From Candidatus Hydrogenedentota bacterium (lineage in GTDB: Bacteria > Hydrogenedentota > Hydrogenedentia > Hydrogenedentales > SLHB01), in the NCBI GenBank assembly GCA_963745075.1, contig CAVUWV010000017.1, forward strand, positions 64,001-128,000: a stretch of 64,000 nt of DNA, in the 5' to 3' direction. Below the pieces are notes generated by a model. It had not been told where the DNA came from and made no database searches. It saw only the letters and a program-made list of their open reading frames with translations. Positions 35,290 to 40,592 of this stretch are shown here, one piece after another. Position numbers and translations under genes: made by a program. Positions within the stretch are counted from its first letter, which is position 1. Each line of letters begins with the position of its first letter.

Positions 35290-36297
35290 TTATTTGGTTT
35301 CGCGGCCCGCGTATTGCCGTTTGTAGTATTCGAGGAACTCACCGGTCTTGATTTTCCGCCACCACCACTCGTTGTCCTGGTACCACTTCACCGTCAACGC
35401 GATGCCCTCGTCCCAGTTCATAACCGGCTTCCAGCCAAGTGCCTTAAGTTTCGAGGAATCGATCGAATACCGACGGTCGTGGCCGGGCCGGTCTGTGATA
35501 GGTTGAATCAACGACTCGTCCTTGCCGACGCACTCCAGTATTTTCCGGGTTAATACGATGTTTTCCCGTTCGTTTTCCCCCGCGATATTATACACCTCGC
35601 CGGGGGCACCGTGCCGCAACGCGTGGTCCACGCCGCGGCAATGGTCTTCGACGAACAACCAGTCGCGCACGTTCTTGCCGTCGCCATAAAGCGGCAAAGG
35701 TTCGCTATCGATGGCGTTCGTGACAAACAAGGGCAGCACCTTTTCCGGGTATTGATACGGGCCGTAGGTATTCGAACCCCGCGTAATCGTCACGGGAACG
35801 CCAAAGGTGTGGAAATAGGAAAGGCCCAGCAGTTCACCGCCCGCCTTGCTCGCCGAGTACGGATTGCGCGGCCCCACCGGGTCGGTTTCCTTGAACGATC
35901 CTTTTTCGATGCTGCCGTAGACTTCATCCGTCGAGACGAGCAGCACGCGCTTCGTGCCTTGCGCCTTGGCGGCTTCGAGGATGTTGTGGACTCCCCGCAC
36001 GTTGGTCGCGATGAAGTCGGACGCTTCAATGATGCTGCGGTCCACGTGACTGTCCGCCGCGAAATTTACGACCGCATCGCACCCTTCCATGGCTTGGGCC
36101 ATGGTTTCGGCGTCCGCGATGTCCGCCTGCACGAACGTGTGCCGCGACGCATCGAGGTCTCTGAGATTGTCGAGATTGCCGGCGTACGTGAGCTTATCCA
36201 CGTTCACCACATGCACCTCGGGATAGGTCTTCAAGGTGTGGCGCACGAAATTAGATCCGATGAATCCCGCGCCTCCGGTGACGACAATTCGTTTCAT
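35290..36297 (-). CDS. rfbB: dTDP-glucose 4,6-dehydratase
   Basis: TGGAGFIGSN, DKLTYAGN, SHVDRS, STDEVYG, YSASK and DRPGHDRRY. Confidence 0.97.
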   Translation of the reverse strand: MKRIVVTGGAGFIGSNFVRHTLKTYPEVHVVNVDKLTYAGNLDNLRDLDASRHTFVQADIADAETMAQAMEGCDAVVNFAADSHVDRSIIEASDFIATNVRGVHNILEAAKAQGTKRVLLVSTDEVYGSIEKGSFKETDPVGPRNPYSASKAGGELLGLSYFHTFGVPVTITRGSNTYGPYQYPEKVLPLFVTNAIDSEPLPLYGDGKNVRDWLFVEDHCRGVDHALRHGAPGEVYNIAGENERENIVLTRKILECVGKDESLIQPITDRPGHDRRYSIDSSKLKALGWKPVMNWDEGIALTVKWYQDNEWWWRKIKTGEFLEYYKRQYAGRETK

Positions 36298-37142
36298 TCA
36301 CGAGTCTCCCGTTTCTGCATGTAGCGCTGCAGCGCGTCGGTCCAATGCGGCATAGTAAAACCGCAGGCCGCCACGAGTCGCGCATTCGACAATACGGAGT
36401 AGGCCGGTCGCGGCGCTTTCGAGGGATACTCCGTAGCCGCGCACGGCTCCACCGGTGTCGAGACGCCGGCGGTTTTCAAGATTGCCTGCGCAAATTCAAA
36501 ACGTGAACAAGTCCCCTCGTTCACGGCGTGGTACGTTCCGTACGCCGCGGTACGCGCCAGCGCGCGTGTCGCTTCGGCCAGATCCCGCGTGTAGGTCGGC
36601 GAGCCCACTTCGTCACTCACCACGCGGAGCGACGGCCGCTTCGACGCGGCCGCGAGGATTTTCTCCACAAAATTGTTTCCACCGATTCCGTACAACCACG
36701 CGGTCCGCACGATGAAGTGCCGTTCCCACGATCCCCGCGTCGCCGCTTCACCCGCCGCCTTGCTCTCCGCATAAACGCCGTGCGGCGAAATGGGATCGCC
36801 GGCTTCGTACGGTGTCGTCTTTGTGCCGTCGAACACAAAGTCCGTGCTGAAGTACACCACCGGCACTTCCCGCGCGGCTGCCATCTGCGCCACGTTGCGC
36901 GCGCCGCGTTCGTTCACGGCATACGCCGCGTCACGGTCCGACTCGGCGCGTTCCACATCCGTGTACGCAGCCGCATTGATGATGATTTCCGGTCGCGCGC
37001 GCTCGACTGCCGCGCGCAGCGCCGTTGCATCGGTGATATCGAGTTCAGCGTAGGTCAGACCCGTCGTCGGTCCGGCTGTGGCGAATACGTCGATGAGCAC
37101 GTGACCTAACTGACCATCCGCGCCGACTATCAGTGTTTGCAT
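36294..37142 (-). CDS. rfbD: dTDP-4-dehydrorhamnose reductase
   Basis: GADGQLG, NAAAYTDV, STDFVFDG, YAESK, RTAWLY and RPAYS. Confidence 0.96.
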   Translation of the reverse strand: MQTLIVGADGQLGHVLIDVFATAGPTTGLTYAELDITDATALRAAVERARPEIIINAAAYTDVERAESDRDAAYAVNERGARNVAQMAAAREVPVVYFSTDFVFDGTKTTPYEAGDPISPHGVYAESKAAGEAATRGSWERHFIVRTAWLYGIGGNNFVEKILAAASKRPSLRVVSDEVGSPTYTRDLAEATRALARTAAYGTYHAVNEGTCSRFEFAQAILKTAGVSTPVEPCAATEYPSKAPRPAYSVLSNARLVAACGFTMPHWTDALQRYMQKRETRE

Positions 37143-37246
37143 GAGATCCCCTTGAGCGGTCGGGATTGTAGCAAGACGGGGAGTGCAAAAGAAATCTCCC
37201 GCATCGCAGTTTTCGCACCGGCAATCCGGCTATCTTGTGCGGAAGC

Positions 37247-37273
37247 TCAAGTTTTTGAGTGTTTCGCCGATAC
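37247..37273 (+). promoter_or_regulatory. Sigma28 (FliA)-type promoter 1
   Basis: TCAAGTTT...GCCGATAC with TCAA-N15-GCCGATAC spacing. Confidence 0.75.
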
Positions 37274-37279
37274 ATGTAG

Positions 37280-37558
37280 TACAACGCCGAGGCACGGAGG
37301 CCGAGGCAGAATCAGACACGGATGTCGCAAGAGTTGAATGTGGGGTTGGGTAGGCCAATCCTCCCAACCGTCAGCAAAACGGCGTGATGCATGTCCCTGC
37401 ATCCCGTCTTTGCATAGAATGCCCGGTGACCATCCCTACACCGGGTAATCGCAGTGTAGGTGGGTGCTCATCCCTGCACCATACCTGAAAAAGTGACCAT
37501 AGTTTTACCCTCCATGAGTGGCGCCACAATCCCATAGTTGTGGCGTCCTTCCTTTTTT
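37280..37558 (+). ncRNA. Candidate sigma28-dependent structured sRNA, copy 1 (~280 nt; ends approximate)
   Basis: Lies between a sigma28 promoter and an intrinsic terminator with no credible ORF. Has two ACGGA-loop hairpins and five hairpins with C-rich loops, and is homologous to copy 2. Confidence 0.6.
37520..37558 (+). terminator. Intrinsic terminator closing sRNA copy 1
   Basis: Stem GGCGCCACAA/TTGTGGCGTC (G-U wobble only on the + strand), followed by CTTCCTTTTTT. Confidence 0.65.
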
Positions 37559-37600
37559 CTCTTGCCGCGCCAGTCCGAAATCTTTCATCAAATTTGCCGC

Positions 37601-37627
37601 TAAAGTTCCCCGCCCTTCCGCCGATAA
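37601..37627 (+). promoter_or_regulatory. Sigma28 (FliA)-type promoter 2
   Basis: TAAA-N15-GCCGATAA, an exact match to the canonical sigma28 consensus. Confidence 0.85.
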
Positions 37628-37633
37628 AAGTAC

Positions 37634-37825
37634 TGCACGGACCGAGACACGGAGGTCGAGGTCACCTGACACGGATGTCACCCATTTTAATAGGTCTGAG
37701 GACGACGCCGGCGAAAGCCGCACGGGGCGACCAATCCCATCGCCCGCTACGTGACGCGTCCGAAAGGTCTAACCCTCTGTAGAGTGCGCTATGGCACTGC
37801 GTGGCATAGCGCATTTCTCCTTTTT
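37634..37825 (+). ncRNA. Candidate sigma28-dependent structured sRNA, copy 2 (~190 nt; ends approximate)
   Basis: Three ACGGA motifs (two in hairpins), a GAAA-tetraloop hairpin, a CCAATCCCA-loop hairpin and a terminator; homologous to copy 1. Confidence 0.6.
37784..37825 (+). terminator. Intrinsic terminator closing sRNA copy 2
   Basis: Stem TGCGCTATG/CATAGCGCA followed by TTTCTCCTTTTT. Confidence 0.65.
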
Positions 37826-37852
37826 CCCCGCATCATGCCAGTCTTCCTTCGC

Positions 37853-37876
37853 TAATCGTAATCGTAATCGTAATTG
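37853..37876. repeat. Hexanucleotide tandem repeat (TAATCG)x3 plus TAATTG
   Basis: Read directly from the sequence, just beyond the truA stop codon. Confidence 0.85.
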
Positions 37877-37883
37877 GCCCGCC

Positions 37884-38651
37884 TCAATACTCCACCGCCA
37901 TCAAGGTCAGCCCCCGTGCAGGCGCTGTAAAGCCGTGATACGGTCCTGGCGATCCCAACAACGCGTCGATACGCGACTCCGGCAGGTGGCCGCGTGCCAC
38001 CTCCACCAAGGTCCCCGTGATGTTACGGACCATTTTGTAGAGGAACCCGTTCCCGTGGAATTCCAACCGCCACAGGTTTTCCACGTCCGGGGTTTGAATC
38101 ATGCCGCCTTTCGCCAATCGCAGCGAATACAGGGTGCGGACGGTGGAATGCTTCGGGCTGGCATTGCTTCCCTCGAAACTCGCGAAATCATGTTCACCCT
38201 CGAACTTCGTGCACAGATTACCCAACCGCTCGAGATTCAAATCGCGGGGGGCGTGCCACGCAAAGTCCGCACAAAAAGGATCCGGTTCCCGATTCAGATC
38301 GAGCGCGTACCAGTATCGCTTGGCACGGGCGGATTTACGGGCGTGAAATCCCTCCGGCGCCGGCGTAATCGATTCGAAACGAATCTCCGGACCCAGCATT
38401 TGCGACAGGGACCGCCGCAGCCGCTTCGGATCCACGTGATCCGGCAGGGTGAACGAACACACTTGCCCCAAGGCGTGGACTCCGGCATCGGTGCGGCTCG
38501 CGCCGTGGACGGGCACCGGTTCGCCCACAATCCGCTCGACGGCGGCCAGGATCTCGCCCTGCACCGTCCGTTCCGTGGGCTGAACCTGCCATCCGGCAAA
38601 ATTGGAGCCCACGTAGCGCACAACGGCTTTGTAGTTCCGAGTCTCCGGCAT
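37884..38651 (-). CDS. truA: tRNA pseudouridine(38-40) synthase
   Basis: GWQVQ, ASRTDAGVHALGQ, GEHDFASF, GFLYKMVR and TAPARGL. Confidence 0.97.
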   Translation of the reverse strand: MPETRNYKAVVRYVGSNFAGWQVQPTERTVQGEILAAVERIVGEPVPVHGASRTDAGVHALGQVCSFTLPDHVDPKRLRRSLSQMLGPEIRFESITPAPEGFHARKSARAKRYWYALDLNREPDPFCADFAWHAPRDLNLERLGNLCTKFEGEHDFASFEGSNASPKHSTVRTLYSLRLAKGGMIQTPDVENLWRLEFHGNGFLYKMVRNITGTLVEVARGHLPESRIDALLGSPGPYHGFTAPARGLTLMAVEY

Positions 38652-39336: not shown

Positions 39337-40592
39337 ATGATTAGTCTTTTGGTGGCGGCGTGTTTGAGCGCCCCCAATGTCGTGATGCTTTCTGTTGATA
39401 CCCTGCGGGCCGATCATCTCGGTTGCTATGGGTACGAGTACGATACCACCCCTCATCTCGACCAGTTCGCCCGGGACGCAATGGTTTTCGACAACTGCGT
39501 TACGGAAGTCCCCCTGAACGTCGCCGTCCTTCGGCGCCATGATGACCTCGCATTATCCGCGTATGAACGGCGCCGCGCGCAACGGATTGCCCCTTCCCGA
39601 GTCCGTGCCGACCCTGGCCGAACAGTTTCAAGGCGGCCGGGTATTATACGTTTTGCGTGCAAAGCAATTGGACCCTCAAGGCGCCACTCTGCGGACTCGC
39701 GCGAGGGTTCGACACGTACGAGGACAGTTTCCACAAGAAGCGCTGGGGTTTCCTGAAGTCCGAGCGTTACGCCGATGAAGTCGCGAAGATCGCGGTGGAG
39801 TTCCTGACGAAACGCGATCCGGACAAACCATTTTTCGCCTGGATCCATTTCTCCGATCCGCACGCCCCGTACAAGTTTCACAAAAAGTTCAATCCCGGCG
39901 ACCGCGACCTGCGAAAGCTGAGCGATGATGAAGACACCCGCGCCCGGTACGATTCGGAAGTGGCATACGCGGACCACAACATCCAGAAGGTGCTCGACGC
40001 CATTCCCGAAAACACCTACGTGCTTTTCGTGGCGGACCATGGGGAAAGCCTACACGAACACGATTACCTCGGTCACGGGCGCAGAATCTATCAGACGGGG
40101 CTTCACATCCCTCTGATGGTGCGCGGTCCCGGGATCGCGCCGGGGCGTACGGTGGCGCCCGCGCGGGGTGTCGATATCGCACCGACGATTCTGGGTCTGG
40201 CCGGTCTGTCGCGGCCAGACGGCATGCTTGGTCTGGATTTGTTGAACGATCCCGTTCCGGACGATCGCGTTCGTGTGGTCGAGACCTACGGCGGAGCGGT
40301 TCCCAAGATTCCCGGCGCGAAGGCGCTGATGGCGTCGCGCCCGCCCATGCGCCAGGGCGTGATCTCGGGGAACTGGAAGCTCATCATCGGCGGCCCGGAA
40401 ACCGAGTTGTTCAATCTCGCCGATGATCCCGAGGAATTGAACAATGTCGCGGGGCAGGCGGAGGACCGTCAAAAGAACCTCGCCGCCTTTATCTCAACCT
40501 GGGATACCGCGACCTCGAAAGAGGACACGGAAGCCGCGGACTTGAGCAACGAGGATATCGAAGCCTTAAAGAGTCTGGGCTACGTGGAGTGA
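39337..40592 (+). CDS. Sulfatase/alkaline-phosphatase-superfamily hydrolase (two +1 frameshifts near 39517 and 39630)
   Basis: PNVVMLSVDTLRADHLGCYGY, WIHFSDPHAPY, ADHGE and EALKSLGY. Three consecutive frames join when one base is removed at each of the two sites. Confidence 0.85.

Follow-up and report, generated by a model that had tools for sequence, protein, structure and literature searches.

A region between rfbD/rmlD and a truA-type gene in the window (the whole 64,000-nt stretch of Candidatus Hydrogenedentota DNA that was analyzed) contains six hairpins with unrelated stems, to which the original prediction assigned one shared C-rich loop, CA(A)UCCC. This raises the question of what kind of RNA presents these loops, from which strand, and with what the loops pair. 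The hairpins appear to be parts of two tandem plus-strand small RNAs, each with its own FliA/sigma-28-type promoter and terminator and each with the same order of modules: two GGA hexaloop hairpins, UCCC hairpins, a C/U-rich antisense stretch, and the terminator (Table 1). We infer that both RNAs are transcribed, with ends placed from the promoter and the U tail. The promoters match what we take to be the FliA/sigma-28 consensus, and a scan of the region for sigma-70 promoters gave 0 matches. The same FliA-type motif is also present ahead of two flagellin transcripts in this genome, and it is conserved across 36 aligned copies of the RNA, for which the motif was part of the selection criterion. 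The genome carries fliA, csrA, and fliW, and two features expected of a sigma-28-dependent flagellar sRNA, a FliA-type promoter and fliA in the genome, are seen. The contigs of the one RNA run listed (share 0.07) span only pieces of rfbD and truA, outside the RNA locus. A 36-codon frame in RNA 1, read by eye, is not retained in homologues and was rejected as a small ORF. The idea of a TnpB/TldR guide was also set aside, as it is an analogy only (PMC10705468) and no such gene flanks the locus.

Table 1. Features of the two putative small RNAs and their flanking genes (window positions)
Feature	Position	Strand	Remarks
rfbD/rmlD gene, flanking, divergent	36294..37142	-	
FliA/sigma-28-type promoter, RNA 1	37247..37273	+	TCAA-N15-GCCGATAC motif match
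Small RNA 1	37280..37558	+	ends from promoter and U tail; about 280 nt
GGA hairpin 1, predicted CsrA site	37286..37307	+	ACGGAG loop, internal GA/GA loop
GGA hairpin 2, predicted CsrA site	37315..37326	+	ACGGAU loop
Hairpin with CCAAU loop, not UCCC	37344..37369	+	stem kept, loop variable
UCCC-loop hairpin, RNA 1	37386..37403	+	9-nt complement, 376 nt upstream of flaB start
UCCC-loop hairpin, RNA 1	37422..37445	+	9-nt complement in a loop 40 nt upstream of flaC start; 8-nt complement in flaB leader
UCCC-loop hairpin, RNA 1	37463..37480	+	9-nt complement, 55 nt upstream of flaB start
Antisense stretch, RNA 1	37497..37522	+	against flaC ribosome site and start codon (G000:C8:8373-8398), 25/26 bases
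Intrinsic terminator, RNA 1	37520..37558	+	UCCCAUAG loop; 10-nt complement across flaC start codon
FliA/sigma-28-type promoter, RNA 2	37601..37627	+	TAAA-N15-GCCGATAA motif match
Small RNA 2, paralogue of RNA 1	37634..37825	+	inferred ends; about 190 nt
Two GGA hairpins, RNA 2	37640..37680	+	
UCCC-loop hairpin, RNA 2	37725..37745	+	covarying stem; no partner of at least 7 nt in own flaB-flaC transcript
Anti-ribosome-site stretch, RNA 2	37766..37786	+	weaker flaC match, only rank 74 of 5,892 gene starts
Intrinsic terminator, RNA 2	37785..37825	+	
truA-type pseudouridine synthase gene, flanking, convergent	37884..38651	-	

Both terminators are on the plus strand, and the promoters and the polarity of the G-U pairs agree with a plus-strand RNA, as had been proposed. 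Across the 36 aligned copies, 98.8% of the 5' module is paired; among 324 cells, 14 are G-U and 4 are non-pairs, a pattern that suits the plus strand and not the minus strand. Relative to dinucleotide shuffles, the RNA 1 fold has a z score of -4.98 on the plus strand (0 of 200 shuffles were as good) and of -1.57 on the minus strand. RNA 2 folded alone has a z score of -1.66 (11 of 200 shuffles were as good) and is not significant on either strand, and the plus strand folds better than the minus strand in only 28 of 44 homologues. The hairpins also fold on the minus strand, and rfbD is located divergently upstream at 8 of 31 loci, in six genomes, which favors the competing view, named in the original prediction, that these are ordinary AGGGAUG CsrA loops in a minus-strand rfbD leader. 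However, rfbD is absent within 1.5 kb at the other 23 of the 31 loci, the promoters, terminators, and G-U polarity point to the plus strand, and the distribution of the RNA tracks flagellin, so that we find an rfbD leader scarcely credible.

A DNA search detected matches in 24 of 41 related genomes. Among GTDB species genomes, the exact 5'-module pattern occurs in 38 stretches (26 labelled as Hydrogenedentota, 8 labelled as Nitrospira relatives, 2 tandem-repeat false hits, and 2 others); it has 0 matches in viral contigs, and a phage origin was rejected. A covariance model of the promoter and 5' module matches 104 of 135 Ca. Hydrogenedentota genomes (98 at E<=1e-9), a count that overstates the distribution because weak model matches include flagellin leaders. 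The RNA and flagellin agree in presence in 129 of the 135 genomes (both, 101; neither, 28; RNA only, 3; flagellin only, 3), and for the RNA and FliW the counts are 98 with both, 24 with neither, and 6 and 7 discordant, all of these being counts over related genomes in which kin are not independent. In four genomes of one genus (G124 to G127; completeness, 78 to 91%), fliW is kept and flagellin and the RNA are both absent (4/4). At G096:C178, G097:C2, and G025:C32, flagellin genes are found no more than about 2 kb from copies of the RNA. The same kind of search that found Hfq in 5 of 14 controls did not find it in the 41 genomes searched. Rfam gave no match at the gathering score anywhere in the window, none at E<=10 within 37100-37950, and just 2 sub-threshold chance matches (E values of 0.32 and 0.85) over five loci. 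A literature search, mostly of main texts available without subscription, turned up no account of the family; motif tables from RNA discovery screens could hold it. Based on these sequence comparisons, we conclude that this is a structured RNA family without an Rfam 15 entry, which is a member of no named family compared here.

All six hairpins are present, and all are formed in the predicted minimum-energy folds. The claim of a common loop holds in a narrower form: five of the six display UCCC, with a shared core of (A/G)UCCC rather than CA(A)UCCC, but the hairpin at 37344-37369 shows only CCAAU and has CCUCCC in its stem. Since it does not display UCCC and its loop differs among 8 aligned homologues that keep the stem, we do not count it as a member of the UCCC set. 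The loops at 37392-97, 37429-38, and 37468-75 are predicted to be unpaired at a probability of about 0.9 to 1.0, the terminator loop (37530-37) at about 0.6 to 1.0, and the RNA 2 loop at 1.0. Conservation of loops despite divergence of stems was borne out, in that 5 of the 6 stem pairs of the RNA 2 hairpin have changes in both partners and its AUCCC is invariant (11 homologues). The 3' parts of 44 homologues contain 88 copies of (A/G/U)UCCC, versus 31 to 43 in six shuffles, with at least one copy in 40 of the 44; 74% of copies are accessible, versus 32% in shuffles. These 44 homologues are what remains of 62 extracted rows after removal of 18 (2 tandem-repeat false hits, 1 duplicate, and 15 near-duplicates).

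The flagellin genes of this genome were given labels of our own: flaA, flaB, and flaC, in tandem on contig C8, and a divergent flaD on C21. FlaB and FlaC are identical at 253 of 272 positions; flaD (G000:C21:145964-146773, minus strand) shows about 40 to 43% identity and has a leader without a FliA promoter match or a GGA hairpin. The second-best own-genome match of RNA 1 is the opposite strand of the flaC ribosome site and start codon (25/26 bases). When 5,892 gene starts from a crude ORF caller were ranked for pairing with this stretch, flaC was 1st (-53.8 kcal/mol, z score of -7.5), flaB was 4th, flaA was 1,219th, and flaD was 3,310th; a control segment placed the flagellins at ranks 373 to 3,466, which is no flagellin preference. 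Across genomes, with one genome per genus (29 RNAs, 14 genera), the duplex of an RNA with flagellin starts of its own genome is 2.7 kcal/mol better than expected (0 of 20,000 label permutations), and the genome-level p is 0.0002 for this co-variation. The set consisted of 31 RNAs, obtained from 61 model matches in 15 genomes of which 40 were examined (8 weak matches and 1 strong match without a recognizable terminator were left out), and of 69 flagellin starts from 86 matches (15 weak FlgL-like matches and 2 without an N terminus were left out). Among the 31 RNAs, 11 placed their own genome first of 15, and 7 placed it at rank 11 or lower; of these 7, five are from genomes with fragmented-looking flagellin clusters and two are not. 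With flagellin classes judged by eye, and with 5 RNAs skipped because classes were missing, the best own target of the other 26 RNAs is of the downstream type in 20 cases, of the long-leader type in 5, and of the stand-alone type in 1. Part of the antisense stretch is itself base-paired in the predicted fold. By computation, the RNAs do have a separate conserved target-pairing region, as is characteristic of the McaS-like class.

Leaders of the flagellin genes carry two kinds of hairpin. Stand-alone and first genes (kinds assigned by eye) have an A(C/A/U)GGA hairpin in the leader, and another 24 genes, most of them downstream members of clusters and grouped by the hairpin itself, have an AGGGA hairpin 34 to 41 nt before the start, which is accessible in 18 of the 24. 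The flaB-type gene has a leader of 280 to 610 nt, preceded by a FliA promoter. The flaB leader of this genome contains 9 GGGAY motifs, the highest count among 5,852 upstream windows (mean, 1.38), and 14 long flaB-type leaders contain 89 GGGA versus 5 UCCC, with one leader (G019) having no GGGAY. GGGA loops are also CsrA-type sites, and this enrichment could therefore come from CsrA alone. In RNA 1, three loops are complementary over 9 nt to sites in the flaB and flaC leaders, and the hairpin at 37344-37369 has no more than a 7-nt match, which falls within flaC; when 7-mer loop matches are counted, flaB only shares first place with 3 other windows. The length of the loop-to-leader match co-varies by genome, modestly (73 loops; p = 0.008). 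The flaB leader (G000:C8:9414-9978, minus strand, in L005) is 563 nt, FliA-driven, GGGA-rich, and without a conserved ORF. Long flaB-type leaders were seen at 14 loci in 13 genomes and may be structured RNAs themselves, some copies matching the 5' model weakly. A UUGAA motif (window positions 37334-37338) lies 3' of the second GGA hairpin of RNA 1; UUGAR is present there in 20 of 44 RNAs, and UUGAA is present in 13 of 14 long flaB-type leaders and is rare on the other strand. It may be a nuclease or protein site.

The two GGA hairpins of the 5' module are 22 to 24 nt apart and have hexaloops near the CsrA SELEX consensus, and this spacing falls in the bridging range of a CsrA dimer (PMC7652899). 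We predict that one CsrA dimer docks on the pair. The five-base complementarity of GGAUG and CAUCC had also suggested a conformational switch, in which the UCCC loops kiss the GGA loops of the same RNA in cis. This was not supported: the loop-only duplex is about -3 kcal/mol (-2.8 to -3.8, versus -6.4 to -11.3 kcal/mol with two flagellin-leader loops), and the GGA loops of the RNA avoid AGGGA (4 of 72 cases), even though UCCC never varies at its third C. We regard a cis switch as highly unlikely. The weak pairing with its own loops, which are so rarely AGGGA, indicates that the partner of UCCC is in trans.

Building on the layout, strand, conservation, complementarity, co-variation, and co-occurrence computed above, we propose, with a probability of about 0.7, that these are two FliA-driven dual RNAs that bind CsrA, block the operon flagellins, and spare the stand-alone flagellin; transcription, CsrA binding, the order of pairing, and the sign of regulation are the parts that we infer. 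Since the RNAs lie behind FliA (sigma-28) promoters, FliA would switch both on together with the late flagellar genes. The UCCC loops would act as seeds that kiss GGGA(U/C) loops of the flagellin operon mRNA, in the long flaB leader and the flaC leader, as well as the AUG-GGA-C start, and the 3' antisense stretch would then zip across the ribosome site and start codon. Translation of flaB/flaC-type flagellins would probably be blocked as a result, perhaps with cleavage of the duplex. The 5' module would hold one CsrA dimer, as sponge, stabilizer, or matchmaker, and the stand-alone flaA-type flagellin would be spared and could be relieved via CsrA titration. Blocking flaB/flaC and sparing flaA would tune the make-up of the filament or the flagellin load. 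A dual design of CsrA binding and antisense pairing, with loops directed at AGGGAUG-type sites, had been anticipated by the original prediction and stands; the flagellin target, the sigma-28 promoters, and the 26-nt stretch were absent from it. Such RNAs would offer a mechanism for post-transcriptional choice among near-identical flagellins in a lineage without detected Hfq, and they form a structured family, new to Rfam 15, whose predicted target is backed by co-variation.

Two extensions of this proposal go further. We tentatively suggest, as a possibility to which we give well under even odds, that FliW and the sRNAs jointly control CsrA across the phylum and that the RNA reads a one-letter loop code, in which AGGGA loops, those of operon flagellins, are caught by UCCC seeds and silenced and A(C/A/U)GGA loops, those of the stand-alone flagellin and of the RNA itself, are not; if true, the composition of the filament would be switched by an RNA. 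According to a 2020 review, whether FliW and small RNAs act jointly on CsrA was yet to be determined in any species (PMC7652899), and the 98 of 135 genomes with FliW and an RNA model match are a concrete system for this question. In its boldest form, which we consider very unlikely, the RNA with four loops and the leader with nine sites would make a kissing-loop network that stores or localizes flagellin mRNA.

The same pairing could be read with a different role for CsrA, as a matchmaker or cargo rather than a sponged protein: CsrA bound to the 5' module would stabilize the RNA or aid annealing, replacing Hfq, and the RNA would be purely repressive, not a sponge, and would relay the status of free CsrA to the operon flagellins. 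Such a role fits the number of GGA hairpins (exactly two, 22 to 24 nt apart, as many as a single dimer would occupy), the negative search for Hfq in 41 genomes, and the case of B. subtilis, where pairing of SR1 with ahrC is promoted by CsrA (PMC6546359). We nevertheless think it rather less probable than a sponge, because a dimer bridging both hairpins would have no free face for mRNA and a 25-bp duplex should need no chaperone. The direction of control could also be reversed, with flagellin mRNA that is not translated, and the long flaB leader most of all, sponging a CsrA-titrating RNA or triggering its decay, in which case pairing would free CsrA. That the flaB leader has many sites distant from the ribosome site, that no conserved ORF was seen in it, and that some long leaders weakly match the 5' model of the RNA would suit this direction. 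The longest pairing, however, covers the ribosome site and start codon, which is the usual mark of mRNA repression, and we judge the reversed direction unlikely.

A more doubtful alternative still is that the UCCC loops bind a second protein and that mRNA pairing is left to the 3' stretch only. It would account for an invariant core that is short, for an RNA 2 loop that has no long partner in its own genome, and for loop co-variation that is modest. It does not explain why three loops have 9-nt complements in the very transcript that the 3' stretch targets, or why the leaders are GGGA-rich and UCCC-poor. We therefore retain the reading of dual RNAs in which the loops pair with flagellin mRNA.

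Judged by sequence, these RNAs resemble in their workings the dual RNAs of the McaS type and also FliX, FlmR, and similar sigma-28 RNAs, but they are outside the named families. S. aureus RsaE and RNAIII have unpaired UCCC seeds, as do the RNAs described here; we know of no CsrA module in either, and neither has an Rfam model match here. Repeated C-rich loops on variable stems are likewise found in the cuckoo RNAs of Alphaproteobacteria, which are defined by a CCUCCUCCC loop in each of 2 to 4 adjacent hairpins (PMC4615179). In contrast, the loop here is (A/G)UCCC rather than CCUCCUCCC and complements GGGAY loops rather than the SD, and the RNAs have extra 5' and 3' modules and come from another phylum. 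With 0 Rfam matches, the suggested kinship with cuckoo RNAs or RsaE is reduced to analogy. E. coli McaS and GadY are likewise dual, with a minimum of two GGA motifs alongside base pairing (PMC7652899), but there is no sequence or Rfam link to them, and the RNAs here are FliA-driven, target flagellin, and occur in FliW hosts; McaS-like dependence on Hfq is not indicated, as Hfq was not found in the 41 genomes. FliX, MotR, and UhpU of E. coli and FlmR (CJnc170) of C. jejuni are late-class RNAs that also feed back on flagellin or flagellar genes (PMC10578931, PMC11187230). FliX and MotR pair mostly within the fliC coding region, and that report does not contain the term CsrA (PMC10578931); FlmR is 47 nt (PMC11187230). 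The RNAs here are stand-alone, 160 to 290 nt long, and equipped with CsrA hairpins and several seeds, and they form a long predicted duplex over the start region. GGA hexaloop hairpins near the SELEX consensus are shared with CsrB/CsrC and RsmY/RsmZ, which have 13 to 22 sites (PMC6546359) versus two conserved sites here; the FliA promoter and the lack of an Rfam match also set the present RNAs apart. The protein trio of the B. subtilis Hag-FliW-CsrA switch, where SR1 and CsrA also interact, is encoded here too, but in B. subtilis CsrA is held by FliW and not by RNA (PMC6546359, PMC7652899).

Several further elements were seen during these searches. At G000:C23:91722 (plus strand, L160), a FliA promoter and GGA hairpins precede a small cysteine-rich ORF, giving a third, weak model match in this genome, and at G000:C23:77577 (minus strand), a FliA promoter and a GGA hairpin lie upstream of an ORF that we presume to be FlgK-like. 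An element present in six copies in G000 (C1, C8, C10, C14, C15, and C24) is probably an insertion sequence with a chance match to the GGA-hairpin regex. At L010 and L011, an insert of ~800 bp with a small upstream gene separates the paralogous RNAs; a motif in it, read by eye, is one we take to be Fic/Doc-like, and the insert is likely a doc-phd-type toxin-antitoxin pair. Window positions 39337-40592 hold two overlapping ORFs that resemble, by what we take to be a sulfatase likeness, halves of one gene that is possibly frameshifted.
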